Below, piece by piece: positions 21,651 through 53,811 of a stretch of 64,000 nucleotides of DNA. How positions within the stretch are numbered: the stretch's first letter is position 1; the number at the start of each line of letters is the position of its first letter. Source of the stretch: an uncultured Gemmatimonadota bacterium (GTDB lineage: Bacteria; JAAXHH01); assembly GCA_951812955.1 (NCBI GenBank), contig OX638340.1:3264001-3328000 (forward strand), given 5' to 3'. The position numbers and the translations under genes were made by a program. The notes beneath the pieces are model-generated. The model ran no database searches and was not told the origin of the DNA. It was given only the letters and a program-made list of their open reading frames with translations.

Positions 21651-21941
21651 ACGTTGCCATTAGTGGCGGCATTGTTGGCTATAGAATGGACATCTACGTA
21701 GTACGGGGTTACGGCAGTCGAGGGCACGGCTCCGTTCTTCGGTCGGAAGCAAACGAGGAACCATCTAGTCGCTATTAAGGCTGAGGTGGCATTTTCAATG
21801 GCGAGCCGACACGCGGACTGGATGAAACAGGGTCGGCGAGATTATGAATACTACATCCGTGCGGAAGCGAAATGCGCACTGGCGAACGCCGCGCAGGTCA
21901 TCGACTTCTGTGAAGGTATTCTGGCTGGACCGCTCTCGACT

Positions 21942-22257: not shown

Positions 22258-22425
22258 AGCGACCGGATACCGTGGTCTTTCTGGCCATGGTGGCAGTAAA
22301 CGGTTCGATCTTTCGGAGTTTGGGCGTTACGCGCTTTCAATCGAGATGGCCTTCGATTACGTTATAGTCGACAAGCTGTCAGGCGTCCCCAAAGGGATAA
22401 TCGCCCTGGATCTTGGAGGCGTTCG

Positions 22426-22860: not shown

Positions 22861-22982
22861 GCCACATCAATCAATTTAACATGTTTCAACCGGTATACAT
22901 TCACACAAATATGCAAGCCATGTATCCAATGAAACAGTAGAGCCGTGGCTACCACAGCGAGCAGCAACTAGATTTGTTTAGG

Positions 22983-25900: not shown

Positions 25901-27872
25901 CAGCGAGGAATTCTTGTAAAGAGCGATGTAGAAAGCCGATCTCTATTGGTGATTTCTCGATGAGAACCCCAACTGCCTCGGTACCAATAGTGAGTAATTC
26001 TTCTGCTATACTATGTGCACCTTCCGGTTTTTTATGTAGGTGAGTTGAACAAAATCCCTGAAGCACATCCTTAGCAATGACTCTATCTAGAGCATCGCTC
26101 CCCGCTGAATCGTGGGTTTCCCAAGCCAACCTAGCCAATGCCCGTTCACGTGTTTCCTGTTGCAAATGTGAGTTGGTCCCGCGTGCGTGAACTGACTTTT
26201 CACGTCGCTTGGGCTGTTCGTCTAGCAGCAGACGTGCTAGTTCCTCGTATGCTTTGAATCTGCTGCGGGGAAGGCTCACTTTCTGAATGGCAAGAGCAAT
26301 TAGGCCATTAAGTAGTAAAGGCACCTTTGCCAGGCGGGATATCCGTAAATCACGGTGAAGGTCTTGTATGAATTGGGTGGCTTCGGATTTCGCCCTTTTG
26401 TGTCGCATGGCGATAGAGTCGCTATCTTCGCCAGGTACAGCAAGTGTGTAGGACCGATGCATGAACCATCGTTCAGCCAAGATTCCTTGTTGTTCATCTG
26501 TCAACCCAGAAAGCTGGGCTACACGCCACCTACTGCTTAGTCCACCGATCCGCGTATAACCTAGAGGACGACTGCTGACGATTGCTGGTACATTCCGTTC
26601 TCCCACGAATTGTTCGAGCAAACCAAGCGCCGTCCGAGCATCCGTGCCGTTACTCCACTCATCAAGGCCATCTACAAATAGCATTAATCTCGAATCTTCC
26701 AAAGCCTGCTGAACCAATGTAATTAGAGCTGTCTCAGCGGAAACTTTTTGAAGCCAAGCAGTGAGAACATTTGCTAACGAACACCCTGTTTCAGATTCGC
26801 TGACAAGTCGCGTCCACATGGCAAACGGAACCCAAACAGGTAAATATTGTCCCCAACGAAGAGCACTTGCCTCATAGCGCGGATCGGTACTAAGTAGATC
26901 AAGTAATACACAACGAAGCAAGGTACTCTTGCCGATACCTGGGTCTCCAAGTACAACCGACTGATCGGAGTCTGCAAGCCAGTCAATCGCTGAGCGGCGA
27001 ACTAGCGAGGGTCGAGGCAAAACTTGCGGTCTGCGGGATTGAGTAGAGTCTTCGTTTCCATCGGTGCGGAGTCGTCCTTTATTTTGATCTTCTATCGATT
27101 GATTAGTTGTTTCAATGTGGGCAGCTTGTTGTTCTTCCAGAATATCGGGAGGCACAAATCGATCGGCTAAACTGAGGGGCTGAAAGTCAGGTTTTATGGA
27201 ACCTGTTACGGACGGGATACCGGGATCGGAAATCTCGAAATGGTGAGTATAGCAACGCCGAAGAAGCTGTCGCAGTTGTACGACCTGACCAGGTTTTAAT
27301 CGGCGACTCGACAGTTTGGCAGCAGCTTCTTCGCCACAGAATTCCTGCACCCACTCGCGTCCAAAGAAGTCGTCTACTAAATCTGGATGGTTTTTTAGAT
27401 GTTCAGAAATCTGCGTGACACCAAGTGGTAGGAATTGGATGTTGCGTTCACGGAGGCGATCGCCTTGTGATTCTAATTCTATTGCAAGCTTTTTTTCTTC
27501 GGTCTTCACCGAAACTGCTAGTACAAACTTATCGGTTTTAGGTGCCCATGAGCCTTTTAAAAAACCAGTAACCGCAATGTCGATGAGATCCGAGCTGAAT
27601 TCCTTGTATCTTTTGCACTGCCAAACAGTATATCTGGATGATTCCAATGTGCGTACGTAGATATCTATACCTTCTTGATCCTGACCTGGAATCCCATACT
27701 CTTGACATCTTTCCACTTTTCCACCGCGCTGTGCGAGGCGAGCACAAAGTCTTTGAAAGAAGTTCCACGGTAAGAGGTTTAGTGGGAGTTCCTGTAATCT
27801 AGTTCTAATGGGATGAGAGACAAATGATTCAGATGGTACCCACACACTTGTGTTTTTTTTTGATTCTTCCAT
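22983..27872 (-). CDS. NLR-like antiviral STAND protein: N-terminal Mrr-type restriction-endonuclease-like domain + NACHT NTPase + ~1000-aa C-terminal helical (HEAT/ARM-like) repeat region
   Basis: N-term ...GQDQEGIDIYVRT...YTVWQCKRYK... (Mrr_cat-like D...QxK); Walker A VVLGDPGIGKSTLL; NACHT-type Walker B LMLFVDGLDEW followed by AIVSSRP; remainder alpha-helical repeats. Real ATG is second codon of track ORF (track starts at TTG). ~45% GC. Confidence 0.85.
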   Translation of the reverse strand: MEESKKNTSVWVPSESFVSHPIRTRLQELPLNLLPWNFFQRLCARLAQRGGKVERCQEYGIPGQDQEGIDIYVRTLESSRYTVWQCKRYKEFSSDLIDIAVTGFLKGSWAPKTDKFVLAVSVKTEEKKLAIELESQGDRLRERNIQFLPLGVTQISEHLKNHPDLVDDFFGREWVQEFCGEEAAAKLSSRRLKPGQVVQLRQLLRRCYTHHFEISDPGIPSVTGSIKPDFQPLSLADRFVPPDILEEQQAAHIETTNQSIEDQNKGRLRTDGNEDSTQSRRPQVLPRPSLVRRSAIDWLADSDQSVVLGDPGIGKSTLLRCVLLDLLSTDPRYEASALRWGQYLPVWVPFAMWTRLVSESETGCSLANVLTAWLQKVSAETALITLVQQALEDSRLMLFVDGLDEWSNGTDARTALGLLEQFVGERNVPAIVSSRPLGYTRIGGLSSRWRVAQLSGLTDEQQGILAERWFMHRSYTLAVPGEDSDSIAMRHKRAKSEATQFIQDLHRDLRISRLAKVPLLLNGLIALAIQKVSLPRSRFKAYEELARLLLDEQPKRREKSVHARGTNSHLQQETRERALARLAWETHDSAGSDALDRVIAKDVLQGFCSTHLHKKPEGAHSIAEELLTIGTEAVGVLIEKSPIEIGFLHRSLQEFLAAKHLSNLPFEQQKEALKKRFKNPQWHDVFLCLCHLNSRYGEVDEFVAIIESMPLAAEMELSRQSFLAEVAFGDLHCSPSVARKLAEETFEIVETGVRTGTRERLIEFALDGLESEILRSHVESRIQRWFPLRHQYRHGMYESASKWGISSEGQAILMRGFIDEEAWNQRIAAESLARAYGGDPSVAEWLFDLLLIPSEPRLLACSLHALCLGWETNHRLPEILKHARSSADVALQSVALIHRVKRKEQDVDDYETLVELARDFHFASWCWKDDRIRALLKGWPGDIGVKNSAIRSIERNGDKVIVDSGAVGIILLEGFPQDDEVAEAIAGLFRTEDYPSHLIGLGGNWGPLVEAFAGHQILGLAVDDWLERKIKKENGRLFWDFELCLISRSEQAKGILLKPDEDTGVISKDQARWLLLGWGMEDKEVATALLNLADSDVAIKAAHLLPEILLDKVLCRRRLLEILNNESGSTARGALIGLVNLGVKEHDEEVVPAAIEKYSGEVPSGVPYWGVSDLIKHFPNHPKVRDLSFHQLRNRAGDLNTVANAYLNCDEIRCELLKLSSPLPVQLRLTVVDRLARLGPDDDFAYKLLSDYDEDIDVNVKTAAAIGFAASVIQRDELSSELLEKLTKGLLVIGPDYGDRRQAAFSVLLELDRLDIVKTVWSECETNDRGFGVVHSTNLRLAEHLVSHWNRITQAFGDSIWEQIGWMSDEFLTEMAAHATDSDKADEIVEQASQSMTTAPMLQLYSSQLRNTKQLRELCLPLVQYHHVGSWIETAPGIVAAEILAEQFSNDTKTYEVLKSCVTLDDNSNALVIALSAGWPDSQAWKELRTRVQAEKPKLLLPAQIQLLAAIASPNEFVIGVETRMSNLRGDIWEFLPSCLRAVAARFTRDKKVRELAFNRLETQPTSFEKLNYPSFLLDTYEQPERLRAWMRSEINAQSEGVGMAEVALDLSTGTVRSVSHNLLEHLMA

Positions 27873-28376
27873 CAATGTAAATCCTTAAACCGATCGTCGA
27901 TGATGTTACCTCGATTTCGTGGACGATTTACCATTTGGGATTCAGGCTGTTTGCTTGAAGCTCCTTTCGTAGGTTGATGGTGAGAGATATCCGGGGGAAG
28001 AGTGCTTTCTCCAAGTATTGTAGAAGTCCTCGATGTATTCGAACAGTGCGAGTCTAGCCTCGGTCCCTGATTCGCTAGACCGACCGTATGTTGCAAGTGG
28101 AGAAACCTGAGAAAGTTATAGGTAGGGTTGCAAATACTATAATAAACATAGGCAATCACTACGTGGATTCGCCATCTGCACACAACCAAGGCACGCGTTC
28201 GAACGGGTTTTGGTTTCCAGTGATTAAACGATTCTTATATCGTCCTCGATATTCGAATTTCCGCAACAATATCAATTCGATATACCACTGACTTAGGCGT
28301 AAAGAATCCAATAGTGCATCCATCGAAATGTGACCATGCCTACGTTCAGGGTGAACGATATCATTACGAATCTTTG

Positions 28377-29444
28377 TTATCGCGGTCGGACCGTCCGTCC
28401 ATCCCTTCTTTTAGCAATCGCTTCCAAGTGTTTGCAGTGTGACGGAATTTTTGCTTCGATTTCTAATTCTTCGAGTGTCTTTTTTAACGATTTACCGAAA
28501 GAATACACCGTTTCCTGATTGATAATGTAGGACAGAGATTCTAGGGCAGCCTGAGTAAGAACGATTCCCACGTGAATGGCGCTGCCAGCACTATTCACAT
28601 ACCAATCTATAGCCCGACGAATGGCATCTTTCCATTCTTCCTTGGTATACAATTCCCAGAACCCACGAAAAGATCCGGAAAGACTGCCTCCCCCGTCATG
28701 TTTCGCGAGCCACGTGTGCCTGCTTTCTTGCCAGTGAGTTACGTACTTCGTTCCCCATAGTATGGACTGCTCCCCTCCACTTACATCAATTCCTTTTACA
28801 GATGTAAGACCACACGCCGTGCCACGAGCGAATGAGAAAAAGGTCCCTAATCCGTCTATTAAGGGTAATACGTCACCCACGGTAAACACTTTGTTGTTCA
28901 GAGAGTAAATTGCTCCAGTGTGGGTTATGGCATATCCTCCACTTTGTTTTAGGATCTTCTGATTCTCAAAAAAATTGCGATTTTCTTTAATCTCAATCCG
29001 CCAATGATCGACTTCTAGGATTGCGAACCCAAGTCGTCGATATACTCCATCTATTTCTATGTGTTTATCTTGTGCACCATAAAACGTTATGAAATTGAGT
29101 ATACCGAATCGCACAGATTTAAGTCGGACATCGGACCGAGCTACTGTACAAGGACTCTGAACAGGGCCTAAGGAACCTTTGAATCCAATTACTGAATCCT
29201 TATTGAGACTACATGACTTCAGCTTTACTCGAATCCTTCCGCCGCTCTTCAAGGAAATAAAAAAAGGTTCATACATAAATCTCTGTCGCATAAACAATGG
29301 ATATTCATCGGAATCGATAGAAAACTGTAATCTGGGCGACAGTCGAAGAACCGCGCGAACCTTACAAGGCGTGGATAGACATTGGTCTTGTATGTGAGTG
29401 ATACTTGTATCGTCAAGAACAACTGGTTCATTCGGTTTGCACAT
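28377..29444 (-). CDS. hypothetical protein, 355 aa, no recognisable motif; low-GC island gene between the RM gene and the NLR gene
   Basis: Long clean ORF, ~43% GC, codon usage like neighbours, 44 bp downstream of the RM gene stop on the same strand. Confidence 0.5.
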   Translation of the reverse strand: MCKPNEPVVLDDTSITHIQDQCLSTPCKVRAVLRLSPRLQFSIDSDEYPLFMRQRFMYEPFFISLKSGGRIRVKLKSCSLNKDSVIGFKGSLGPVQSPCTVARSDVRLKSVRFGILNFITFYGAQDKHIEIDGVYRRLGFAILEVDHWRIEIKENRNFFENQKILKQSGGYAITHTGAIYSLNNKVFTVGDVLPLIDGLGTFFSFARGTACGLTSVKGIDVSGGEQSILWGTKYVTHWQESRHTWLAKHDGGGSLSGSFRGFWELYTKEEWKDAIRRAIDWYVNSAGSAIHVGIVLTQAALESLSYIINQETVYSFGKSLKKTLEELEIEAKIPSHCKHLEAIAKRRDGRTVRPR

Positions 29445-29487
29445 AACCTACCGATTATCCTTCAATCACCGTGAAAAGATTCTTAAA

Positions 29488-32400
29488 CTACTCCATCGCC
29501 ATAATGATTCTCGCAATCCGCCTAGCGGTTTCCGTAAAGTACTTAATCTCTTGGGGATTGAGCGCACGCCCGATCACATTGAACTCGCGGTAGGATAGCC
29601 ATTTCTTAAGTACCTGATAGCCGCCAAGCTTGTAGTTCCAGATTTTGGTGGGTACGTTATGCCAGAAGGCGCGGTCGTTCAAATACACGTCCACAGTAGT
29701 TGCACCTAGTGCGGAAATCGCCGTACCTAGGACGGCGCGTTCGTCAGCCGTGTATTTGCGTTCGACGATGCGGCCTTTGCCCGGCATTACCGTGTCGCCC
29801 CGTCCGTAGTGACCCCACCTCGCAGTCACTGCGAAATCATCATCGGTCATATTGCTACCGTGGCTAGTTGTAGGCACGGCAAGCGAAGCGATCTCAGGTG
29901 GTATCGCACCCTGAGTAACGCCCGGTACCGGGGTGTCGGGATCAAATAGACAGGCTAGTTCACGACCCCGGTCGGCCGATTCAGCGAATAACTCAGCGGC
30001 ATTTTTGGTATCCCCATTGGGCCAGCCCGGTAGTGGTATACGCGGCCAGTCCATTGCAAGCGCCCCGGCATTAGCTTCACGATATGTCGGATTGTGGAGG
30101 ATGGTAAGGATGTTGTGGAATAAGTCCTCAGGACTCGCTCGTATACGATGGAGATAGCGTTTGCCAGCCTCAGATAAGTTTGGTAGGTAATGTAATACGT
30201 TGTCACCAGCCCCAAGGACGTCGTTGTTAAGATAGATGGGGAACCATATCGCAGTACGTTCGATTAAATGCATAGCACCAAAGTGTCGGGTAACAATGGT
30301 CTGTGCCTCCGTTACGTCCTTACGAAGATGCTGAGCTGCACACAGCCACAGGTTTTCCTCGAACACCTGTCGCTTGTAGTCGGCACGCTTGTCGTTAAGG
30401 AGTTTAGTCTCTGCTTCCCAGTAAAGCCATCGGATATCGAAGGGGCGGTACGCGAAGCGAATGAACCCGCCTTCGTTCGGTCCGCCGCGTGCGAGTAGTG
30501 TTTCGCGCACAGAGTGAGCGTCAAAATGCCTCGCGGTTTTCATGATAATAGGATATCGCTGGGCAATCTCGTTGTGGCTCAAATTCACGTCGAAATAATC
30601 GGAGACGCGGGCCATTAGTCGATCAAGGTCGATATCGACAAGAAACGAGTCCCGGTTGGTCTTTGCTCCAGGAAATGAGATCGGATAAATATCGGGTAAC
30701 GTAGGCCAGTTGAACCAGCCCTCACTCACCGCCGTACGCACGAACGGCAGGCCAAGCGGCAAAGATGGCTCGATGCGGTCATAAAGTACGTTTGGTTCCG
30801 CATGCGCCGTCGCCATCAGTTCCTTGCGCTTTGTACGTCCCCACAGATGGCGAAATCCGATCTCCACTGCGGGGGTATGATTGTACTTACGTACCAGAGT
30901 TGCAATGGCCGTACCCACCTGAATGCCAACCGGATTGTCCGGCGTCGAAAAGATACTTGGGTCTGGCGAGCCATCGGGAGCGACCTTTCCGGTCTTATAT
31001 TTGTCGCCATTTAAGCAGTCGATCCGAATCGAGTCGAAAACCTTGAGGAAGCGCTCCCTCATACCAGCGAACGACAGCCCGTCGAGCCAGGAATAATTGG
31101 AAATGAAACAGATTACCCCCTGACCGGTTCGCCCAGCAATCCGTCTTTCAGCCATACGGAAGAATCGGATGTATAGATCGATCAGTCCCTTGCTTTTTTC
31201 CATCCGTACTTTGCTTGTCTTACGATAGGCTTCGAAGAGTTCGCGTTCTTCATCAATCGTTACACCGGCAAAGGCATTATAGGGTGGATTACCCAAGATC
31301 ACCAAAACCGGAGTCTCCTGCTTCACTCTCTCGGCCCGGTCACGCTCTTCCTCCAATTCAGGGAACGGCAGCACATTCTTAGTTCGCGGCTCCCATCCAG
31401 TCAGAGCGTTTGTTAGGAAGACTTGGGCTCGTTCCATCCCGTCATCGGAAAACGTCGCATCAAGTGCCTGCATGGTCAACCCGATCTGAAGATGCGATAC
31501 GACAAAAGGCGCGGGCATGATCTCGAAGCCAAACACCCGTTCTAATGCCGCCTGCTTTACCTGCGAACCGACAAGCGCACCGACTCCTTTGTTTTCAAGA
31601 TTGGAAGCAATATTGCGTAACACTTCTGCCAGATAGGTTCCGGTACCGCAGCATGGGTCGAGCACATATACGTTTTCCGCAGCTAGTCCATCTGGAATCC
31701 CCAGATCGTCTTTGAGCGCTTTGTCCACTCGTGTAACCATATAGCGCACTACTTCGATTGGTGTGTACCATACGCCTAGTTGCTTACGCAACCCAGGGTC
31801 GAATGCCTGTAGAAAGGGCTCGTAGAAATAGGTTACCGCTTCGCCTTCATTGAATCGGGTGAAGAAGGTAGTGCGGTCCACACGGTTAAGAGCAGCGGAT
31901 GTCCAATCCAACACTTCCACTAGGCCTAGAGGCTCAAGGCGAGCAGGCTGTGAGAGTTGCTGGAACAGAGATTGCATGATAGGAGCACGTAAATGCCACA
32001 CAGCTTCACGCCAGTTGAACCGCCCTTGTGGCGGTGGCACCTGTCGTGTCCACAAAACCTAGGCGGAAAAAACCCCATAGAATAGTGTCTGCACTAGCGT
32101 TGAATTGAAAAACTGTGTGCCTTTTTCCCCCTCGAATCGGACACCAAGCGCGGCTTCTATCGCAGCCCGCACCGATTCTAGAGACGGCGAATCGTCGACG
32201 GCTTCGACACGAGAGAGCCCATCCCGAGCATAAGATGCTAACAACCACGCTAGGTCCTTAGGCTCGGTAAGCATAGTGCGATGTGACAAAGCTCGGGAAA
32301 GATACTCACCCAAGCCCACGCTGACCTCTCGGGCAAAGGTTCGCGGAGTCGCTAACTTTAGATCAAATTCCTCAGCAGTCTCGGCTACCTTAAAGCACTC

Positions 32401-32829
32401 CAATACCGTCTGCTTCCCGACATCGTCTTCTCCCACCAAAACGAATTCACAAGTGTCGGTCACCAGCACCTGACGATAGCGTGCCCAATACCGGGCGACC
32501 TGTTCGCCGACCGCTGTCGCTGCAGCATCACCAGAGAGTGACTTCACCTCCACAACGCCACGTTCCGGCGCTTGCTCTTCGCGAGGTCTGCCTCTCCTAA
32601 CCTGGTTTTCAGTAAAAAGCCCGAAGTCAGGATGGCCCGCACCTAGATCAGCAAGCTCTCCAACGCAATGCACCTTAGGATTGAGCATTCCACCGATGGC
32701 GTTCAGCAGATTTGCGATTGGTCCATAGCTAGAACGTTCTCCGGTCGCAGCCCCGGAAGCCTTTATTCTCTGCAAATCGGCGAAGTAGAGCTCAACTGCT
32801 GCAGTTAGTTTATTGTTCAATACTGTCAT
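29488..32829 (-). pseudogene. MmeI-like single-polypeptide Type IIG/IIL restriction-modification enzyme (PD-ExK nuclease + gamma-class N6-adenine MTase + TRD), interrupted by one in-frame TAG at 32059-32061
   Basis: N-part (32829-32062): ...LGAGHPDFGLF...GVVEVKSLS... PD-x(n)-ExK. C-part (from 32055): ...VLDPCCGTGTYL (SAM motif I), ...ILGNPPYNA (motif IV), C-terminal TRD. Both parts are in the same frame: TTT TCC GCC TAG GTT TTG TGG. Downstream part could still be translated from TTG/GTG as MTase+TRD. Confidence 0.75.
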
Positions 32830-33224
32830 GATTACAATTATAAGGTTGATGAATGCAGGCGCTATAGTGTGTTAGAGGAGTTATGCGAAAAGCGAGGAGT
32901 GGTGTCTAATGTAACAGCGACCTTTAAATGCGGATGTTTGATGCTCGTAAGAGTCAGGGAATTCGGGTTCTTTTTCTTCAATTTTCAATGTCATCAATGC
33001 GAAACTTCACCCTGACGTATTTGCTGTCTTCGTTTTGTTCAAGCTCTGGTTCAGCGCCGTTGAGCTCGCTAATCGCTTTGCGCATCAACGGCCACACTCT
33101 TCCTCTTTTCCATATATCCTAACTGCCATCTAATTTGCCATCAGTTTATTTTAACGTGCATGTATTCAGATAAAGTACTGTATTAAGTTGAGGACATCCC
33201 AATTGATCTCCTGTTGTTCCGTCC

Positions 33225-33491
33225 TCAGCGATATATCTTATCCCGTCTGCCAACTCGAATTACCAAAACGCGCAACGCTCCGGTCTGTATGTCGCAGATC
33301 ACACGAAAGTCACCGACCCGATATCGCCACAATTTGCCCATCGGTCCGGCCAGTGCCCTTCCCGTGTTTCGTGGATCACTGGAGTCAGCAACGCGTTCTT
33401 CAATGTAATTGACGATGCGCAGTGTCGTCTGCTTGTCGAGCTTGCGAAGATCGTTAAGGGCGGTTTCAGTGTACTCAATCGTCCAGGGCAA
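33225..33491 (-). CDS. RelE/ParE family type II toxin
   Basis: MPWTIEYTETALNDLRKLDKQTTLRIVNYIEE...GKLWRYRVGDFRVICDI... typical RelE/ParE fold sequence; overlaps antitoxin gene by 17 nt. Confidence 0.75.
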   Translation of the reverse strand: MPWTIEYTETALNDLRKLDKQTTLRIVNYIEERVADSSDPRNTGRALAGPMGKLWRYRVGDFRVICDIQTGALRVLVIRVGRRDKIYR

Positions 33492-33702
33492 GGGACTTTC
33501 TCACTTCGGAAGCAGTGTAGACTTTTTCCGTCCCTCTTCTGAGGCGATTCAGTACGTCCGACGCAAAGTAGTAGTCTTCCAGGTCTTCGAGGCCACGCTC
33601 AATGATCTCACGTAAGTGGAAGTCCTTGCTGAGGCTCGTCTTGGATACCAATAACTCAAGCCGCTTTTCATCTTCGGGAGTCAGTTGTATCGAAGTCGCC
33701 AT
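33475..33702 (-). CDS. RHH-type antitoxin (RelB/ParD-like)
   Basis: MATSIQLTPEDEKRLELLVSKTSLSKDFHLREIIERGLEDLEDYYFASDVLNRL...; ribbon-helix-helix N-terminus, immediately upstream of toxin. Confidence 0.65.
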   Translation of the reverse strand: MATSIQLTPEDEKRLELLVSKTSLSKDFHLREIIERGLEDLEDYYFASDVLNRLRRGTEKVYTASEVRKSLALDD

Positions 33703-33949
33703 GTCGGGTAATCCTTTGTCGATTAAACTACAACTGCGAAGAATCATCTAAGTTTCAACGTACTTCATAGAGGTACTTACGTCAATATCCTAATCCTTTT
33801 CGCGCGGACTGAGCCTGTCTTCATCTCAGTATAGTCACAATACTGTGGCCTAAGAAACCCCCCGCCACCCTGCATCCGCAATACCAACCCTTCCCCGCTC
33901 TGCCGCAGGCTATATTATCAGAAGGCGGCTCAAAATCCGGACGTCTGAA

Positions 33950-36159: not shown

Positions 36160-36270
36160 GCGTCGAGCCGGATCTCGCGGACCAGGAGGATCGAGCGCGA
36201 ACCGCGCCGGATCTGCAGGACCAGAAGAATCGAGCGAGGTTCGAGCCGGATCTGCAGGATCAGATGAGTA
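36160..36270 (-). repeat. 3 x ~38-bp imperfect tandem repeat directly upstream of Ldh_2-family gene start
   Basis: CGAGCCGGATCTCGCGGACCAGGAGGAT / CGAGCGCGAACCGCGCCGGATCTGCAGGACCAGAAGAAT / CGAGCGAGGTTCGAGCCGGATCTGCAGGATCAGATGAGT. Confidence 0.8.
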
Positions 36271-36524
36271 AAATATCACATCGCGGGTCAATGACAATCA
36301 GAATTGCGAATGACCTTGACTAGCCATAACGACATGAATATATTGGCACAATGAACCATATTGGCATTGCCAAAATGGCCATATCGGGACATATGACAGA
36401 ATGACATGATCTGAGCGGACTGGATATTCCCGCGTGCGGTTCCGTTGTTTTGATGAATTAACGATATAAATTACAACATCTTAAGTATGTATTCGAGTGA
36501 TGCGCAGATTGAAGAAGGTCGATG

Positions 36525-36540
36525 TTGGCACGGAAATTGC
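36525..36540 (+). promoter_or_regulatory. putative sigma-54 (-24/-12) promoter upstream of groES
   Basis: TGGCACGGAAATTGCA = TGGCAC-N5-TTGCA with GG-N10-GC spacing, ~95 bp upstream of groES ATG. Confidence 0.4.
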
Positions 36541-36635
36541 ACCATTGCACGGAAGGAATATGGACGCTAGCATCGTCAACAATCGTGCTGATTGAAGATC
36601 AGCGTACTTTTCACAATGGAAAGGAGCAGTAAACG

Positions 36636-36923
36636 ATGAACGTACAACCTTTGGGCGACCGCGTCCTGGTCAAGCGCCTCGAGGAAGAAGAGGTACAGCG
36701 CGGCGGTATCATCATTCCCGATACGGCGAAGGAAAAGCCGCAGCAGGGCGAGGTCGTGGCGGCCGGTCCGGGTCGCGTCGGCGACAACGGCGGCCGCGTG
36801 GAGCTGGAAGTCAAGGTCGGGGACAAGATCCTCTTTGGCAAATACTCCGGCACGGAAGTCAAGCTGGATGACGATGAGTATCTCATGATGCGCGAGGAAG
36901 ACATCCTGGGTATCGTGTCGTAG
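36636..36923 (+). CDS. groES: co-chaperonin GroES
   Basis: [14 protein letters not shown]...[24 protein letters not shown]... canonical. Confidence 0.95.
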
Positions 36924-36967: not shown

Positions 36968-38638
<1,671 letters not shown>

Positions 38639-38716
38639 TGCCTGCCGGGCAGTCCAAATGCATGAAGACCGGCGCCGGCTGTTCAAGTCGGCGCCGGTTT
38701 TGTTAGGAAGGAATAC

Positions 38717-39067
38717 ATGCCTACCTACCAGTATCGCTGCAACGAATGCAATTACGAGTTTTCCGAGTTCCAGTCGATTACCGCAGATCCCCTATCGACG
38801 TGCCCGGAATGCGGCGGCGCCGTGCAACGCCTCATCAGCGGCGGCGCGGGTTTCCTTTTCAAGGGTGACGGATTCTACGCCACGGATTACCGCAGCGAGA
38901 ACTACAAGAAGGCGGAAAAAGCCGATAAGGAATCCTCGTCGGCCAAATCCGACGGGTCCAAGTCCGACGGGTCCGGATCCTCCGACGCTTCAGGTACCGG
39001 CAAAGAGTCGAAATCCAGCGCCTCTTCAAAGGTCGATTCGTCTTCGGGTTCGTCCGAGTCCAACTGA
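38717..39067 (+). CDS. FmdB-family zinc-ribbon protein with Ser/Asp/Gly-rich tail
   Basis: MPTYQYRCNECNYEF...CPECGG... CxxC-x(n)-CxxC FmdB motif. Confidence 0.7.
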   Translation: MPTYQYRCNECNYEFSEFQSITADPLSTCPECGGAVQRLISGGAGFLFKGDGFYATDYRSENYKKAEKADKESSSAKSDGSKSDGSGSSDASGTGKESKSSASSKVDSSSGSSESN

Positions 39068-39076
39068 AGGATCAAC

Positions 39077-40090
39077 ATGACCACGGAAAACGTGAAATCA
39101 CCGGACGACATCAAGGCCATCCACGACCGAATATACGAGCAGAGCGTCTTCGTCGACCGGCTGGTATCGGAAATCGGCAAGGTGATCGTCGGTCAGCATT
39201 ACATGGTCGAACGCCTCCTGATCGGCCTGCTGACCAATGGGCACATTCTGCTCGAAGGCGTGCCGGGGCTGGCCAAGACCCTGGCCGTCAAGACCCTGGC
39301 GTCGACGGTCGCGGCACGGTTCCACCGCATTCAGTTCACGCCCGACCTGCTCCCCGCCGATCTGACGGGCACCATGATCTACGAAGCGGGCAGCGGCGAG
39401 TTCATCGCCAAGAAGGGACCGATCTTCGCCCATCTCATCCTCGCGGACGAAATCAACCGTGCGCCGGCGAAAGTGCAGAGCGCCCTACTGGAGGCCATGC
39501 AGGAGCACCAGGTCACCATAGGCGACGAGACCTTTCCGCTCGAGGACCCCTTCCTGGTGCTCGCCACGCAGAATCCCATCGAGCAGGAAGGCACCTACCC
39601 CCTTCCGGAGGCCCAGGTCGACCGATTCATGCTCAAGCTGACCACGACCTATCCCCGCAAGGAAGAGGAACTCGAGATCCTGAACCGCATGACGACCGGC
39701 GAGTCGGTTGAAGTGGAACAGGTCGTGTCGCTGGAGGATATCGTCCGTGCGAGATCGATCATCAACCAGGTCTACATGGACGAGAAGATCAAGCAATACA
39801 TCGTCGACCTCGTCTTCGCGACCCGCAACCCGGAGGACTACGGCGAGCTCACCGACATCCGCGACCTGGTGGAGTACGGCGCCTCGCCCCGTGCGACGAT
39901 CTACCTGGCGACGGCCGCGCGCGCGCACGCCTTCCTGCGCCGCAGAGGCTATGTCACCCCGGAGGACGTAAAGTCGATCGGAATGGACGTGTTGCGCCAC
40001 CGCGTCATCGTTACCTACGAGGCGGAGGCGGAAGACATGACCGCGGAACAAATCCTTCAGCGCGTGTTCGACTGTGTAGAGATCCCTTGA
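39077..40090 (+). CDS. MoxR-like AAA+ ATPase
   Basis: ...ILLEGVPGLAKTL... Walker A, ...HLILADEINRAP... Walker B, MoxR subfamily. Confidence 0.9.
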   Translation: MTTENVKSPDDIKAIHDRIYEQSVFVDRLVSEIGKVIVGQHYMVERLLIGLLTNGHILLEGVPGLAKTLAVKTLASTVAARFHRIQFTPDLLPADLTGTMIYEAGSGEFIAKKGPIFAHLILADEINRAPAKVQSALLEAMQEHQVTIGDETFPLEDPFLVLATQNPIEQEGTYPLPEAQVDRFMLKLTTTYPRKEEELEILNRMTTGESVEVEQVVSLEDIVRARSIINQVYMDEKIKQYIVDLVFATRNPEDYGELTDIRDLVEYGASPRATIYLATAARAHAFLRRRGYVTPEDVKSIGMDVLRHRVIVTYEAEAEDMTAEQILQRVFDCVEIP

Positions 40091-40968
40091 TACCCAGGCA
40101 GATTATCCAGAAAATCCGGCAGATCGAGATCCGGACCAAGCATCTCGTGAACGACGTGTTCAGCGGAGAGTACCACAGCGTCTTCAAGGGCCGCGGCATG
40201 GAATTCGCCGAGGTGCGCGAATACGAGCCGGGAGACGAGATCCGATCGATCGACTGGAACGTCACCGCCCGGCTGGGACGTCCCTATGTCAAGCGGTTCA
40301 TCGAGGAAAGGGAACTGACGGTCATTCTCATGGCCGACGTCAGCGCATCGGGCCATTTCGGCACGGCGAGCCAGATGAAGAGCGAGATTACCGCGGAAAT
40401 CTGCGCGCTGCTTGCTTTTGCGGCGATCCAGAACAATGACCGTGTCGGCCTCCTCATGTTCACCGATCAGATCGAGAAGTTCATCCCGCCGAAGAAGGGC
40501 CGGACCCATATTCTGCGGGTCATCCGGGAAGTGCTGTACACCCGGCCCGATCACACCGGCACCGACATCACACAAGCGCTCGATTACCTGAACCGGTTGC
40601 TGACGCGCAGGAGCATAGTCTTCATCATATCGGATTTTCTCGATTCGGACTATGCCAAGCCGCTGCGGGTGGCCAGCAAACGGCATGACGTGGTCGCCGT
40701 AACGATCACGGACCCGAGGGAACTCGATCTGCCCGGCATCGGGCTGATCGAACTGCAGGACGCGGAATCGGGAGAGGAAGCGCTCATCGACACCACCGAC
40801 GCCGCATGGCGCAAGCAGTATGCCGAGTACAACGAGGCCATTCGTGAAGACCGCGACCGGCAATTCAGGGTGACCGGCGTGGACGCAATCCATATCCGTA
40901 CGGACGAACCCTACATCGATCCGCTGATGCAGTTCTTCAAGCTGCGCGAACGCAAAATCGCGCGGTGA
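40087..40968 (+). CDS. DUF58 domain protein (MoxR partner, vWA-like)
   Basis: ...SGEYHSVFKGRGMEFAEVREYEPGDEIRSIDWNVTAR... DUF58 signature; TTG start overlapping moxR stop. Confidence 0.8.
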   Translation: MIPRQIIQKIRQIEIRTKHLVNDVFSGEYHSVFKGRGMEFAEVREYEPGDEIRSIDWNVTARLGRPYVKRFIEERELTVILMADVSASGHFGTASQMKSEITAEICALLAFAAIQNNDRVGLLMFTDQIEKFIPPKKGRTHILRVIREVLYTRPDHTGTDITQALDYLNRLLTRRSIVFIISDFLDSDYAKPLRVASKRHDVVAVTITDPRELDLPGIGLIELQDAESGEEALIDTTDAAWRKQYAEYNEAIREDRDRQFRVTGVDAIHIRTDEPYIDPLMQFFKLRERKIAR

Positions 40969-41118
40969 ATCGAAAACGGCGCGCCGGACCTGTCCGCGGG
41001 ATCGGGTCGAAAGGCAACAAAGGCTTGCATTTCATCACTTTGTGCGGTAAATTAGGTTACTTTGAAAACCGCTGTCCGTTTCGCGCGAAACTTGCGGGAA
41101 AGGCACTGGGAGCCTGAC

Positions 41119-42066
41119 GTGATAGAAGTAAAGAATCTGACCAAGAAATACGGTAATTTCACCGCGGTCCGGGACGTGAGTTTCCAGGTCGAAAAGGGCG
41201 AGATTCTCGGATTCCTCGGGCCGAACGCCGCGGGCAAGACCACTACCATGCGGGTGCTGACCTGCTTCATGCCCGCGACGGCCGGCACCGCCCGGGTGGC
41301 AGGGTTCGACACGTTCAACCAATCCCTCGAGGTGCGCCGCAGGGTGGGATACCTCCCGGAAAACGTACCCCTTTACCTGGACATGCGGGTCCGTCCATAC
41401 CTGGAGTTTATCGCCCGGATCAAGGATATCCCTTCCCGCGATCGCAAAAAGGCCGTCAACCGCGTAATCGAGCTGGCCGCGCTGGAAGATGTCGAAAACC
41501 GGATTATCGGACATTGCTCCAAGGGATTTCGCCAACGGGTGGGACTGGCCCAGGCGCTGATACACGACCCCGACGTCCTGATCCTGGACGAGCCGACCAA
41601 CGGATTGGACCCGAAGCAGATCAACGAGGTCCGTGAGGTGATCAGGAGCCTGTCCGGGGACCATACCATTATTCTCAGCAGTCATATTCTGCCCGAAGTG
41701 AGCAAGACCTGCGAGCGTGTGCTCATTATCGACCGGGGACGGATCGTGGCCGGGGACACGCCGGCCAACCTGGACGCGCGGCTGCGGGGTTCGCAATCCA
41801 TCTCGGTACAAATCCGCGGTCCGGTCAAGGAAGTGATGGACCTGCTGAAGAAGAAGGATGGCGTGGTGGACGTGAAGACCAGGTCTTCACTCGGCGAAAG
41901 CCTCTGGCAATATGACATCGACATCATTCCCGGCAGGGATCTCCGTCCCGAGCTGGCATCGTCGGTGGTCGAAAACAACTGGGACCTCCTGGAACTCACC
42001 ACGGCCGGCATGAGCCTGGAAGAGATCTTCCTGGAGCTGACGACCCAGGAAGAGGAGGTATCCTGA
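41119..42066 (+). CDS. ABC transporter ATP-binding protein (GldA-like, ABC-2 subfamily)
   Basis: GPNAAGKTT Walker A, ...LSGGxxQR-like CSKGFRQRV..., ILDEPTNGLD Walker B; GTG start with GGGAG RBS preferred over track ATG at 41062. Confidence 0.85.
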   Translation: MIEVKNLTKKYGNFTAVRDVSFQVEKGEILGFLGPNAAGKTTTMRVLTCFMPATAGTARVAGFDTFNQSLEVRRRVGYLPENVPLYLDMRVRPYLEFIARIKDIPSRDRKKAVNRVIELAALEDVENRIIGHCSKGFRQRVGLAQALIHDPDVLILDEPTNGLDPKQINEVREVIRSLSGDHTIILSSHILPEVSKTCERVLIIDRGRIVAGDTPANLDARLRGSQSISVQIRGPVKEVMDLLKKKDGVVDVKTRSSLGESLWQYDIDIIPGRDLRPELASSVVENNWDLLELTTAGMSLEEIFLELTTQEEEVS

Positions 42067-42068
42067 CG

Positions 42069-42842
42069 ATGCAGGGATTACTGGCCATCTGGGAACGTGA
42101 ATTGAAAGCCTATTTCATTTCACCTATCTTCTACGCCCTTACCACCGTATTCATATTTATCGTAAGTTTCATGTTTTACCAGCAGTTAGGGAACTACACC
42201 GGGTATTTCATGCAGGCCGCGCAGTACCCGACGCTGATGGAGCGGATCAACATCAACGAGATGATCATGCGTCCGCTGTTCAATACCATGAGTTTCGTGG
42301 CCGTGCTGACCCTCATGCCCATGCTCACCATGCGGGTCTTTTCCGAGGAAAAGAAATCCGGCACGATCGAGCTGCTGCTGACTTCGCCGGTCAAGGACTG
42401 GCACGTGATCCTGGGCAAGTTTTTGGCGGCCTATACCCTGTACACGGTCATGATCGGGCTGACGATGATCTACCCGCTGGTGCTTCAGGCGTATGGCGAT
42501 CCCGACTGGGGTCCCATCTGGGCCGGCTACCTGGGCCTCCTGCTCCTCGGCGGCGGCGTGATAACCATCGGGTTGTTCGCCTCGTCGCTGACGGAGAACC
42601 AGATCGTGGCCGCCGTGATCTGCTTCGGCGCCGCGCTCATACTCTGGATGATGGACGTAGCCGCGGAATCGATGACCGGTACTTTGGGGGAAATTGTCGG
42701 CTACCTGTCCGTGCTGAGGCACTACAATACCTTTGAAAAAGGGATCATCGACTCGACGGACTGCCTGTTTTTCCTCAGTTTCATTTTCCTGGGCCTGTTC
42801 ATCACGGTCCGGTCGGTGGAATCGACGCGGTGGCGAGGATAA
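42069..42842 (+). CDS. ABC-2 family transporter permease (GldF-like)
   Basis: 6-TM permease following the ATPase. Confidence 0.75.
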   Translation: MQGLLAIWERELKAYFISPIFYALTTVFIFIVSFMFYQQLGNYTGYFMQAAQYPTLMERININEMIMRPLFNTMSFVAVLTLMPMLTMRVFSEEKKSGTIELLLTSPVKDWHVILGKFLAAYTLYTVMIGLTMIYPLVLQAYGDPDWGPIWAGYLGLLLLGGGVITIGLFASSLTENQIVAAVICFGAALILWMMDVAAESMTGTLGEIVGYLSVLRHYNTFEKGIIDSTDCLFFLSFIFLGLFITVRSVESTRWRG

Positions 42843-42913
42843 CGCGTGTCCCGAATGGACGACATAGCCCGCGCCTTCGATAGTGCGGATCTGGCCAGGG
42901 GAGAAACCCTTAC

Positions 42914-44533
42914 ATGAAAAGTCTCGTTTCGTCCGCCGGTTACCTGGGTCTTATCCTGATCCTGGTCAGCGGGTACCTTTACGTCTCGGATGCGACGACG
43001 CAGCGCACGGCGTTGATCGCCCTGCTGGTAGGTCTGGCGCTCGGATCGACCTGGATGGTCTTCGAATGGGAGAAGGTATGGAACCTGCTCGGACGTCGTA
43101 CAACAAGATACGGCGCCAACACCGCCGTACTGGTGCTGCTGGTTATTGGAATCCTGGCATTCGCGAACATGATCGGCTCGCGATACACCCAGCGGTATGA
43201 CGCGACGGCCAACAAGCGGTTCAGCCTTGCCGACTTGTCCGTCAGCGTATTGAGCGAACTGGACCAGGAAGTTCACATCGTGGGGTTTTTCAGATCCAGC
43301 GGGCCCGATGCCACGAATCGGTATCTGCTCGACGACATGTTGAATCAGTTTCAGTACCATTCGGATCACATCACGTACGAATTCATAGACCCCGATCTCG
43401 AGCCGAGTATAGCGCGCCAGTACAACATCTCCGCCTACGGAACGGTCGTGTTCGAAAGCGAGGGCAAGACCGAGCACATCAACCGTTATCTCGAAGAAAG
43501 CGTGACCAACGCGCTGGTCAAGGTCACGCGCGAAGGCCAGAAGACCATTTACTTCCTGGAAGGCCACGGCGAACATAACGTCAACCTGACCGACCAGGCC
43601 GGCTACAACAGGATTATGCAGTTGCTCGAGAACCAGAGTTACACCGTCAGGAGCTTTTCGCTGCTCAGTGAGGTGGAGGTGCCGGCGGACTGTAACGTGC
43701 TGGTGGTGGCCGGTCCCCGGACCAACCTGGTGGGAAACGAGCAGGAAGCCATTCGCAACTACCTGGACCGCGGCGGCCGCGCCCTGTTCCTGATCAACCC
43801 CGACTATCCCGAAGAAAGCGCCGATCTGTCCGCGCTGCTCGCACACTGGAAGGTGCGGATCGGCGACAACGTCGTGATCGACGAAAGCGCCGTGGGCAGG
43901 TTGCCTGGCATGAACGAGTACATGCCGGCCGTCATGCAATACCCGGCCCATCCCATCACGCGCCCCCTTGGCAACACCGTGAGTTTCTTCCCACTGGTGC
44001 GGTCCATCGAAACGGCGTCGGCCTCAGACGATACCGTGGAGATTCAGACCATCGCCATGACCGGGGCCCGCAGCTGGGCGGAAACCACGCTGCCGGGATC
44101 GCCGGACGAAGCCATGGAGTACGTGCCCGTGCTGGATCCGGAAACGGACGAGCCTGGCCCGGTTTCCATCGCCGTGGCCATCACGGCCGTCCCCAGGGCG
44201 CTTCCGCGCAGGGACATGGCCACGCTGACGCCGCAGGAGATGGCGATGCGGCCGGAGGAGCACGAACTGAAAACCCGCATCGTGGTCGTTGGAAATTCAT
44301 CCTTTGCATCCAATGCCTACATCATGCTGCCGGGCAATGGCGACCTGGCCCTGAACATCCTCAACTGGCTCGCCCAGGAGGAGGACCTGCTCGCGATCCG
44401 GCCCAAGTCCAGCGACACCAGGCTGGTTCAGATTTCACTGAGCCAGATGTGGGATATCTTTATCTTCACCGGCATCCTCTCGCCCATCGCCATCCTGATC
44501 GCTGGCGTAGTGGTGTGGTGGAGAAGGAAATAG
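42914..44533 (+). CDS. GldG-like ABC-transporter auxiliary protein
   Basis: N- and C-terminal TM anchors with large periplasmic domain, positioned after gldA/gldF-like genes. Confidence 0.7.
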   Translation: MKSLVSSAGYLGLILILVSGYLYVSDATTQRTALIALLVGLALGSTWMVFEWEKVWNLLGRRTTRYGANTAVLVLLVIGILAFANMIGSRYTQRYDATANKRFSLADLSVSVLSELDQEVHIVGFFRSSGPDATNRYLLDDMLNQFQYHSDHITYEFIDPDLEPSIARQYNISAYGTVVFESEGKTEHINRYLEESVTNALVKVTREGQKTIYFLEGHGEHNVNLTDQAGYNRIMQLLENQSYTVRSFSLLSEVEVPADCNVLVVAGPRTNLVGNEQEAIRNYLDRGGRALFLINPDYPEESADLSALLAHWKVRIGDNVVIDESAVGRLPGMNEYMPAVMQYPAHPITRPLGNTVSFFPLVRSIETASASDDTVEIQTIAMTGARSWAETTLPGSPDEAMEYVPVLDPETDEPGPVSIAVAITAVPRALPRRDMATLTPQEMAMRPEEHELKTRIVVVGNSSFASNAYIMLPGNGDLALNILNWLAQEEDLLAIRPKSSDTRLVQISLSQMWDIFIFTGILSPIAILIAGVVVWWRRK

Positions 44534-44546
44534 GAGACGAAACGCC

Positions 44547-46325
44547 GTGAGCGGTGGCCGATACACGATCATGCTGGCCTTGATTCTGGGTCTGCTGGCG
44601 TCCTACTTCTTCCTTTTCGTTAACGAGGAAGATCAGGTTGCGGAGATCGAGCGTGTATTCGAGATCAACCCCGAGGAGGTCGTCGAGATCAAGGTGACCG
44701 TGGACGGAGCGGCCACAACGATCGAGAAGGTACCCATGGAAGGTTGGGAGATTACCGATCCGGTCAGGTACGCCGCGGATCCCGACATCGTGGGTGCGTT
44801 GCTGCGTGAATTCTCCACTCTGTCCCCCGCACGTACTGTCGCCGATTCGGCGGAAGCCCTTTCGGAATACGGCCTTGAGAATCCGTCGGCGTCCGTCGAG
44901 GTCATCCGGGGTCTCGACAGGCCCATGGTGTTGCTGCTGGGAGACGTGAACCCGACGGGCGCAGCCCATTATGCCGTGGAAAGTGGTAAACGGAGGGTAT
45001 TCCTCATTTCCTCGCAGATCAATGGGAACCTGCGAAGGACGTCCGACGCATTGCGCGACCGCAGTCTGATTCGCGTCGAACGGGACGACGTGGAAGAGCT
45101 CATCCTCGAAAAGGGCGACCGCCGGATCGTCATCGGCCTGGACCCCTTCGGAACATGGCGCGTAGAAGCGCCGTACCGGCTCCCTGCCGAGCGCGATGAG
45201 GTGGTCAACGCCTTGACCACGATTATCGGGGCCTCGGCCATTTCCTTCGTCGACGAAGCGCCGTCTTCGCTTGATGAATACGGTTTGGCGAATCCGGTGA
45301 TGACGGCGACCGTGAAATCCGGCGACGGCAGCATTCTCCAGACGCTTTCACTGGGCAATGATCATTTGGGCCAGGTTTTTGCCATGACCAGCGAAAGACG
45401 CAACGTATACTCGGTATCGACTTCGATCCTGCGCCAGCTGGACCGGGAACCCGAGTTTTACAGGCGGGTCACGGCTTTCGATTTTCAATCCTACAGGATC
45501 CCCGACTTTTCGATGGAACTGGGAGACGAGACCGTAACCCTGGTCAAGCATGCCTTCGAAGACTGGCGTATGACGTCTCCCTACGAATTGAGAGCCAACG
45601 ACCGTTTTATCACGGCCATGCTGGACAGCCTGGAGATCATGCGTGTGCGGGAACACATACCGCTGACGGACGCGAACAAAGCGACTTACGGTTTCGAGAA
45701 CCCGGCTGCCAGCCTCTCGCTAACGATCGAGGACCGGGTGAGACCCCAGGAAATCCTGGTCGGCTCGGCCTCCGGCGATGGGCAGTATGAATATGTGATG
45801 GACCCCGCGGAGGAGTGGATCTACGCAGTGGATGAAACTACGCTGCAGCGTCTGCCTGCCTCCGCGATCGACTTGCGCGACAATAAGATCCTTCGGTTCA
45901 AAGGCTATCAGGTACACATGTTCGAGGTGGTCACGCCCGACGAACGTTTGCGGGTGCGCCGCGACCAGAAGCAAAGAGTCGTATGGAAAATCGAAGAGCC
46001 TTCATCGGGCGACGCCGACGCGATCTCGGTCGGCCGGGCGTTCAGCGAGCTGGATTCACTGTATTCGCAGGCCTTCATAACGGCAGACCCCGACGCTGAC
46101 CTGTCAACCTATGGACTGGACAGACCGATCATGGAACTTACGCTGCAGATCGGGGGCCGGGACGACGTGCTGGAAGAACGCTTATCGCTCCTGGTGGGCA
46201 AATCGTTTCCCGGGGACCAGAACCTGGTCTACGTCAAGCAAAGGAACAGCCCCGTCGTGTCCCTGGCCAGGGCCGGGTTCGTGGCCCGTATCAATGATAT
46301 GGTCGCCCAGACACCGAAATCGTGA
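44547..46325 (+). CDS. DUF4340-like protein (frequent gldG neighbour)
   Basis: N-terminal TM, internally repeated beta-rich modules; context-based call. Confidence 0.5.
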   Translation: MSGGRYTIMLALILGLLASYFFLFVNEEDQVAEIERVFEINPEEVVEIKVTVDGAATTIEKVPMEGWEITDPVRYAADPDIVGALLREFSTLSPARTVADSAEALSEYGLENPSASVEVIRGLDRPMVLLLGDVNPTGAAHYAVESGKRRVFLISSQINGNLRRTSDALRDRSLIRVERDDVEELILEKGDRRIVIGLDPFGTWRVEAPYRLPAERDEVVNALTTIIGASAISFVDEAPSSLDEYGLANPVMTATVKSGDGSILQTLSLGNDHLGQVFAMTSERRNVYSVSTSILRQLDREPEFYRRVTAFDFQSYRIPDFSMELGDETVTLVKHAFEDWRMTSPYELRANDRFITAMLDSLEIMRVREHIPLTDANKATYGFENPAASLSLTIEDRVRPQEILVGSASGDGQYEYVMDPAEEWIYAVDETTLQRLPASAIDLRDNKILRFKGYQVHMFEVVTPDERLRVRRDQKQRVVWKIEEPSSGDADAISVGRAFSELDSLYSQAFITADPDADLSTYGLDRPIMELTLQIGGRDDVLEERLSLLVGKSFPGDQNLVYVKQRNSPVVSLARAGFVARINDMVAQTPKS

Positions 46326-46326
46326 C

Positions 46327-47400
46327 ATGAGGCGGCATGCGGTGAGGTGTTCAAGCTTACTCGCCACCATCCTGGTGGCCGTCTCAACGAATCCGGCTGA
46401 TACCGAAGCCTTCCCGGCGCCGCAGGATGAAGACAACGGTTTCTCGATCGAGGCCTCGGTAGATCGCGACCGGATCACCGTGGGCGACCCCTTCCTGTAC
46501 CGGATCACCGTGAAGAGCCCCGGCAACTCCGCGGTCGAGTGGCCGGAATCAGGCCGCCCCCCGGAAGGTTTCGATCTCCTATCCTTCGAGCACGAGGGGC
46601 CCCTGTCCGGCCCCGGCGGAGTGAACGTCGATTCACTCCGCTACGAACTTACCCTTTATCGGACGGGCGAACATTCCATACCGTCATTCGCGCTGAAGTG
46701 CGTCCTGCTGGACGGTACCGAAATATCCGCCGAGTCGGATTCCATTTCCGTTACCGTCCTCAGCGTTATAGACGATGAGGCAGAGGATATACGCGATCTG
46801 AAGGATCCGGTGGAGATCCCTGGCGAAGTGCCCTGGTACTTCTGGGCGATCGGCGGACTGGTGCTGCTCGCCGTCGCGACGGGCCTCTTTCTGTACTTCA
46901 GGCGCCGCGGGAAACGGAACGATGCGAACGGCCCGGATACGGCTATCGAACGCCTTCCCGAAGAGATCGCCCTGGAGGAGCTGGATCGACTGGCTCTCAA
47001 GGAGTGGCTGGTCCAGGGACACGTGAAAGCACATTACTCCGCGCTGTCTGAAATCCTGCGACGGTACCTGTCCGTGCGCTACGGGATAGCCGCCATGGAA
47101 TATACGACTTCCGAATTGATAGCGGCGTTGAACGCACTCGATCTCGGCCATGAGGAGTCACGGACCGTCCGTGTACTGTTCGAAGAATGCGACATGGTTA
47201 AATTCGCAAGGTATACACCCGAAACGCACCGGCAGTCACTTTCCTTGGGGGAAGGACGGGAGATCGTCGAGCTGACGAGCCCTCCCCCCGCGCCGGAGTA
47301 TGCCGCGCTGGACCGGAATGACGCCGAAGCCGATTCACCGGTATCCGGCGAGGTTTCCGCCGGCGATGCGGGTTCCGTACGAGCACCGTCTAAGGACTGA
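46327..47400 (+). CDS. membrane protein of bat operon (DUF4381-like): signal peptide, central TM, cytoplasmic tail
   Basis: Starts at ATG 46327 (track ORF extended upstream spuriously); ...WYFWAIGGLVLLAVATGLFLYFRRRG... single TM. Confidence 0.5.
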   Translation: MRRHAVRCSSLLATILVAVSTNPADTEAFPAPQDEDNGFSIEASVDRDRITVGDPFLYRITVKSPGNSAVEWPESGRPPEGFDLLSFEHEGPLSGPGGVNVDSLRYELTLYRTGEHSIPSFALKCVLLDGTEISAESDSISVTVLSVIDDEAEDIRDLKDPVEIPGEVPWYFWAIGGLVLLAVATGLFLYFRRRGKRNDANGPDTAIERLPEEIALEELDRLALKEWLVQGHVKAHYSALSEILRRYLSVRYGIAAMEYTTSELIAALNALDLGHEESRTVRVLFEECDMVKFARYTPETHRQSLSLGEGREIVELTSPPPAPEYAALDRNDAEADSPVSGEVSAGDAGSVRAPSKD

Positions 47401-47407
47401 AGCACTC

Positions 47408-48415: not shown

Positions 48416-48451
48416 GCCGGGGAGGACGCGTACCGGTTCTCCGGAGCAGAC

Positions 48452-50190: not shown

Positions 50191-50218
50191 CCGTTCCACG
50201 AATCGCGATGAAAACACC

Positions 50219-53807: not shown

Positions 53808-53811
53808 GCTC

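Follow-up and report, generated by a model that had tools for sequence, protein, structure and literature searches.

The groESL operon is the classic heat-shock operon, and the textbook modes of its control are activation by sigma-32 and repression by HrcA/CIRCE. The locus analysed here raises the question of how groES and groEL are controlled in a lineage that may use neither. An earlier reading of the letters alone (the sequence-only reading) had placed a sigma-54-type promoter, in place of CIRCE, ahead of these genes. In this study, we report an analysis of the window, that is, the whole 64-kb stretch of DNA, together with the corresponding loci of related genomes. A sigma-54-type promoter, an enhancer-like cluster of half-sites and an IHF-like motif exist upstream of groES and are conserved, and CIRCE is absent. 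We consider it probable that groES-groEL is a two-gene operon under a sigma-54 promoter with an upstream enhancer, an arrangement that replaces HrcA/CIRCE.

Loci carrying groES were gathered from genomes, from metagenomes and by exact look-up of GroES homologues. Proteins of the window were found as exact or near-exact copies in metagenome-assembled genomes labelled Gemmatimonadetes, Candidatus Latescibacterota or candidate division Zixibacteria; the clade is referred to below as Latescibacterota-type. Many of the sister genomes consist of one contig each, 3.5-4.2 Mb long. The clade was represented by 11 distinct loci (the window, L001, L002, L003, L161, L162, L165, L167, L168, L170 and L171), throughout which the gene order groES-groEL-Zn_ribbon_8-MoxR-DUF58 is constant. 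A metagenome scan for nearer relatives returned no GroES of more than 73% identity. The features of the operon and of its control region are as follows.

36316-36344, + strand: sigma-70-like promoter TTGACT-17-TATATT, about 210 nt upstream of the sigma-54 promoter
36340-36406, no strand assigned: putative enhancer (upstream activating sequence), a cluster of TGGCA/TGCCA/TGGCC-type half-sites recognised by repeats, enrichment and conservation
36471-36483, + strand: IHF-like bending site, 55 nt ahead of the -24 element, with the sequence TTACAACATCTTA matching W..CAA-N4-TTR
36525-36542, + strand: predicted sigma-54 promoter TTGGCACGGAAATTGCAC, recognised by consensus, matrix and conservation
36552-36635, + strand: predicted leader of 84 nt, its start site near 36552 placed from the position of the -12 element
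36587-36603, + strand: leader hairpin GCTGAT-TGAAG-ATCAGC, from RNA folds
36618-36626, + strand: strong ribosome-binding site GGAAAGGAG, 9 nt before the ATG, an invariant block in alignment A1
36636-36923, + strand: groES, 95 aa, an open reading frame whose homologues carry PF00166 (Cpn10)
36998-38638, + strand: groEL, 546 aa with a GTG start, an open reading frame whose homologues carry PF00118
38665-38704, + strand: intrinsic terminator after groEL, a 16-bp stem around ACCGGCGCCGG followed by UUUUGUU, from the fold

The intergenic region ahead of groES is 521 bp long when counted from 36115. This starting point follows from the most likely start of the divergent Ldh_2 gene, at 36114, the orthologue in L161 being 346 aa long and not 407. 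Three tandem 39-bp units (CGAGCCGGATCT..GGACCAG..GATCGAGCG) lie at 36163-36263, between the Ldh_2 start and the control region of groES. The longest Ldh_2 reading frame crosses these repeats, so the N-terminal extension that it implies is unlikely to be coding. L001 shares at least the last copy; L161 lacks the repeat.

The core site of the promoter, TGGCACGGAAATTGCA, fits the pattern TGGCACG-N4-TTGCW perfectly. Its -24 element has GG at 36527-36528 and its -12 element has GC at 36539-36540, separated by exactly 10 bp, which is the spacing of a sigma-54 promoter. The site is the sole match to the pattern in the 64 kb, where 100 shuffles gave an expectation of 0.03. The sequence-only reading had recognised the element as a -24/-12 site, which this perfect and unique match bears out, but its coordinates of 36525-36540 have to be corrected to 36526-36541. 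The distance of about 95 bp to groES was accurately given, since the ATG at 36636 lies 95 nt past the final promoter base. An 18-nt promoter matrix was made from the clade promoters including that of the window, which somewhat inflates the score of the window site itself; in a scan of the window with this matrix the site ranked first at 21.4 bits, followed by an intragenic site on the antisense strand at 17.8 bits. Pattern and matrix scans of the 64 kb revealed no further credible sigma-54 promoter. A partial copy of the promoter lies 20 nt downstream of it, so that 36525-36555 of the window reads TTGGCACGGAA and then ATTGCACGGAA, with TTGCAC occurring twice. This copy is kept in L001, and L002 has an 8-nt gap there; as it is without the GG, it is probably the remnant of a duplication.

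Comparison of the clade loci indicated that the element has been retained while its surroundings changed. All 11 clade loci, whose GroES proteins are 76-99% identical, have TGGCA[CT]-N5-TTGC on the coding strand ahead of groES, 90-191 nt from the ATG. The five spacer bases vary among them (GGAAA, GATAA, AATCA, GCGTT, GCACT, ACGCT, GCGCT), the DNA flanking the promoters is mostly unalignable, and the distance to the ATG is also variable. A kept element with changing spacer and flanks is the pattern expected from a selected -24/-12 promoter. L173, with a GroES of 73% identity, has only the weaker CGGCAT-N5-TTGCT. In 1.4 Mb, comprising 160 loci of two scans read on both strands, TGGCA[CT]-N5-TTGC occurred 16 times, and seven of these matches were on the coding strand no more than 150 nt upstream of groES; by chance, about 0.003 matches would be expected in each 400-nt upstream region.

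Activator sites of sigma-54 promoters usually lie 80-200 bp upstream, often with an intervening IHF site, and the classical architecture consists of an enhancer, a bending site and the -24/-12 element. At the sequence level, both a cluster of potential activator sites and an IHF-like motif were found here. In the window the cluster, about 120-185 bp upstream of the -24 element, is made up of ATATTGGCAC, the palindrome TTGGCATTGCCAA, ATGGCCAT and two ATGACA units, both of which are TGGCA in L001. Nine lineages have a comparable cluster, placed 100-215 bp ahead of the -24 element. Together they contain 40 WTGGC half-sites, as compared with 11.5 +/- 3.1 (maximum 21) in 500 dinucleotide shuffles, and the most widespread words of the cluster are TGGCAT (8/9 lineages) and TGGCATTG (5/9). 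The palindrome at 36361-36373 and the TTGGCAC at 36343-36349 had both been noted, at these positions, by the sequence-only reading; they exceed chance, because both are part of this conserved and enriched cluster. The cluster is most likely an enhancer for an activator, although to our knowledge it resembles no known activator site. Between the cluster and the promoter, an IHF-like motif 40-64 nt upstream of the -24 element occurs in six of the 11 clade loci (the window, L001, L002, L003, L162 and L170), its assignment to IHF being by consensus and position alone.

Signals of the two textbook modes were also sought. CIRCE (TTAGCACTC-N9-GAGTGCTAA) has no match within 3 mismatches anywhere in the 64-kb window, and the best score in the intergenic region is 10/18, a value that the window reaches several hundred times. 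The claim that a canonical CIRCE is missing therefore holds, and it extends to the clade, as CIRCE is absent from every one of the 11 distinct loci. Among about 157 unrelated groES loci, 49 carry a near-perfect CIRCE, the commonest arrangement among those fetched. No convincing sigma-32 promoter (CTTGAAA-N13-17-CCCCATNT) was found upstream of groES with spacers of 11-16 nt; the best match, a single one of 5/7 + 5/7, lies at 36333. Taken with the element in 11/11 clade loci and the layout of enhancer, IHF-like site and promoter, these results argue strongly for the proposal that a functional sigma-54-type promoter stands before groESL instead of CIRCE.

The predicted start site lies about 12 nt past the GC, which is standard spacing for a sigma-54 promoter. 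Predicted leaders of the relatives measure 64-165 nt. The stem of the leader hairpin is retained with differing loops in L001, L002 and L161, and L003, L162 and L170 have unrelated hairpins ending about 30-34 nt before the ATG. An attenuator in the leader, consisting of a hairpin and a U-tract, was considered and rejected, as it differs from lineage to lineage. A search for Rfam families in the intergenic region and leader found none, the sole match, mir-96 with E = 0.19, being noise. At the other end of the operon, the fold of 38639-38716 has an energy of -38.7 kcal/mol (z = -4.7), and none of 200 shuffles was equally stable. With such a strong terminator after groEL, groESL is most likely a two-gene unit, apart from the MoxR/Bat genes downstream.

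Several other explanations of the region were weighed. The -24/-12 match might have arisen by chance or be non-functional, with an unrecognised promoter driving groESL, and it may be counted in favour of this that rpoN was not seen in the 64-kb window. With 0.03 matches expected per window and about 0.003 per 400-nt upstream region, and with the element present in 11/11 clade loci amid diverging bases, we regard this as highly improbable. There is practically no chance that a degenerate CIRCE still serves HrcA. That idea goes back to a visual resemblance noted in the sequence-only reading, which had described CTAGCATCG-N9-GTGCTGATT as a degenerate CIRCE-like inverted repeat at 36566-36592 with about six of nine positions matching in each arm. 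The sequence lies at 36567-36593, its arms are complementary in register at 0/9 positions, so that it is not an inverted repeat, and they match CIRCE at 5/9 and 2/9 positions, the total of 7/18 being background. It is not kept in L002 or L003, genuine CIRCE elements are near-perfect in the 49 other loci, and the look-alike was rejected as noise.

In a further reading, the main promoter is the sigma-70-like TTGACT-17-TATATT at 36316-36344, with the TGGCA cluster just downstream of it acting as a repressor operator in replacement of HrcA/CIRCE and the sigma-54 site being secondary or a roadblock of bound polymerase. The hexamers fit at 10/12 positions, and only L001, L002 and L161 share them, their spacers having diverged; the palindrome would fall at about +10 to +22 of such a transcript, a typical operator position. 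However, the seven more distant clade loci have no sigma-70-like element at this position and yet retain the TGGCA cluster and the sigma-54 promoter, which makes the operator reading less likely, and the distance of 100-190 bp from cluster to -24 element, with an intervening IHF-like site, suits an enhancer. We consider it unlikely that the sigma-70-like element is the main promoter, while noting that the operator and enhancer readings of the cluster are not mutually exclusive and can both hold. The element could instead be a distal second promoter, which may give basal expression in the subclade of the window; its conservation there means that sigma-54 is perhaps not the sole route of expression. 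As groESL is normally essential, a strictly activator-dependent promoter requires either constant basal activation or a second promoter, and basal expression of the sigma-70-like kind would relieve this problem. Control could also be exerted, on top of the promoter, by a fourU-like RNA thermometer in the leader, whose folding at low temperature would mask the ribosome-binding site. In the minimum-energy fold of the window leader, CUUUUC is paired with GGAAAG; the ribosome-binding sites of L001, L002 and L003 are likewise paired with an analogous pyrimidine tract. Against this, the unpaired probability of the ribosome-binding site was not below that of shuffled leaders at any of the 11 loci (a fraction of 0.11-0.58 of the shuffles had a probability equal to or lower than the observed one), the predicted melting is shallow, and no Rfam thermometer matched. 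Since occlusion is no better than in shuffles despite the attractive folds, the thermometer, which we judge quite improbable, was dropped as unsupported.

Under the preferred reading, that of a sigma-54 promoter with an upstream enhancer, groES-groEL would be transcribed from the RpoN promoter at 36525-36542 and transcription would end at the terminator at 38665-38704. At this promoter, as at all sigma-54 promoters, RNA polymerase would be held as a closed complex, to be remodelled by an enhancer-binding protein that is driven by ATP. The activator would most likely bind the TGGCA-type cluster at 36340-36406, the core of which is the palindrome TTGGCATTGCCAA, and bending of the DNA at the IHF-like site (36471-36483) would allow the bound activator to contact the promoter. 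From the features described we infer the use of sigma-54, the binding of an activator to the cluster, a start near 36552 and a stress signal, the signal presumably being heat or unfolded-protein stress. In the Latescibacterota-type lineage this arrangement would stand in for the HrcA/CIRCE repressor system.

No rpoN, hrcA or enhancer-binding protein gene was found in the 64 kb by a motif scan and by Pfam scans of essentially all open reading frames of at least 150 aa, and none of the clade loci has an activator gene with PF00158 within 4 kb of groES. The presence of sigma-54 is suggested by the conservation pattern of the promoter, and the activator gene would lie outside the 64-kb window. A wider reading, which we put forward tentatively and which is on balance doubtful, is that sigma-54 and one stress-sensing enhancer-binding protein recognising TGGCATTG-type repeats form the lineage-wide master heat-shock control, driving the sole chaperonin operon and replacing both HrcA/CIRCE and sigma-32. 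If this were true, the enhancer motif would let genome scans locate the activator and the full regulon.

Outside the clade, four loci (L005, L010, L096 and L118) have a sigma-54-type promoter before groES. In L005, from a Nitrospinota genome, the region 1216-3288 holds a gene for a 461-aa protein with receiver, Sigma54_activat and HTH_8 domains, which is the immediate upstream neighbour of the groES promoter; 257 bp separate it from the TGGCATAGCAATTGC promoter and groES. Its product has the appearance of a two-component activator dedicated to the chaperonin operon, and the pairing of chaperonin and activator thus exists elsewhere. L010, from an 'Acidobacteria' genome (about 2760-2930), and L096, a contig (about 2310-2440), have in common the upstream direct repeats TAATTC[AT]CCA ... 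AATTCTCCAGCAT. These repeats are unlike the TGGCA cluster, which suggests another activator and an independent recruitment of sigma-54 to groESL. At about 740-900 of L118, a CIRCE variant in which A is replaced by G (CTGGCACTC-N9-GAGTGCCAA) is found beside a TTGACC hexamer; further downstream there is a sigma-54-like TGGCATCGAGCTTGCG, the -24 half of which lies within the palindrome TGCCAATTTGGCA. Both types of control may act together on groES in L118.

Among known systems, HrcA-CIRCE acts on the same operon as the control proposed here, and from the same place in the regulatory region, but with the opposite logic, that of a repressor on a sigma-70 promoter, and its defining inverted repeat is missing from this locus. 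In the HsfA/HsfB-lonD system of Myxococcus xanthus, an NtrC-type response regulator activates the sigma-54 promoter of a heat-shock gene. A regulator of this kind stands beside groES in the Nitrospinota locus, whereas none adjoins groESL in the clade loci, and the target gene differs. Of the several groESL copies of Bradyrhizobium japonicum, groESL3 is controlled together with nitrogen-fixation genes by NifA, which acts at TGT-N10-ACA sites. The present locus differs in having the TGGCA cluster and no NifA-type site and in being lineage-wide. It may differ in copy number as well: no second GroEL of at least 74% identity from the sister genomes was found among the best 120 matches, more divergent copies being possible. 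Like the present locus, where the activator is only predicted, groESL3 has a -24/-12 promoter directly upstream of a groES-groEL operon and is activated by an enhancer-binding protein. Its dependence on sigma-54 is established by experiment, and it is among the RpoN-dependent genes with the top promoter scores (PMC4842269).

A 2025 survey predicted sigma-54 promoters, enriched before genes for GroES, GroEL, DnaK, DnaJ, GrpE and IbpA, in Bacteroidota and Planctomycetota, and called groES of Bacteroides thetaiotaomicron sigma-54 dependent (PMC12316311). The survey makes no mention of Latescibacterota, Gemmatimonadota or Nitrospinota and names no activator or enhancer (PMC12316311); compared with its predictions, the present analysis adds the definition of an enhancer-like motif and of an IHF-like site. 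No paper linking Latescibacteria or Zixibacteria with sigma-54 was found in the literature collection searched. Latescibacterota and Bacteroidota belong to the same broad FCB group. The set-up had been called unusual, but this is relative, as there are precedents in B. japonicum groESL3 and, mostly as predictions, in Bacteroidota and Planctomycetota. Sigma-54 control of a heat-shock operon is thus a real but not unprecedented mode: the regulatory principle is established, and the new details are the lineage, the enhancer motif and the predicted activator.

On the evidence of these loci, an enhancer-dependent sigma-54 promoter would constitute a well-supported, lineage-wide third mode of groESL control in a candidate phylum without cultured members. 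A pattern predicted so far for Bacteroidota and Planctomycetota would be widened to further lineages of the FCB group and, sporadically, to Nitrospinota and others. The enhancer motif (TGGCATTG / TATTGGCA), together with the promoter matrix, provides a handle for finding the activator and the stress regulon in many near-complete genomes.

Additional features were observed elsewhere in the window. The region of about 21000-33800 is marked by a low third-position G+C (0.39-0.57, as against about 0.75-0.85 elsewhere), and it also encodes two nucleotidyltransferase-domain proteins. It has the appearance of an acquired defence island and lies shortly before the groESL neighbourhood. The individual genes recorded, the first three in this low-G+C stretch, are as follows.

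22983-27875: NACHT NTPase of 1630 aa
29488-32055: Type ISP restriction-modification enzyme
33225-33747: ParE toxin and a small partner
12895-12968, - strand: tRNA-like gene (Rfam tRNA, 37.7 bits)
59776-61155, - strand: protein of 459 aa with two PspC domains, from the Pfam scan

ARAGORN assigns no amino acid to the tRNA-like gene and gives it a four-base anticodon, 'cacg'; it may be a degenerate tRNA or one whose anticodon loop is enlarged. Psp systems in proteobacteria are under sigma-54/PspF control, and the matrix scan placed no well-scoring sigma-54-like site near the PspC gene. After groESL, the stretch 38717-56558 encodes Zn_ribbon_8, MoxR (AAA_3), DUF58/vWA, an ABC-2 transporter set, BatA-like vWA proteins, TPR, BatD and TPR-SH3 proteins, and resembles the Bacteroides 'aerotolerance' (Bat) cluster. 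The first four genes of this Bat-like cluster keep the same order beside groEL clade-wide.
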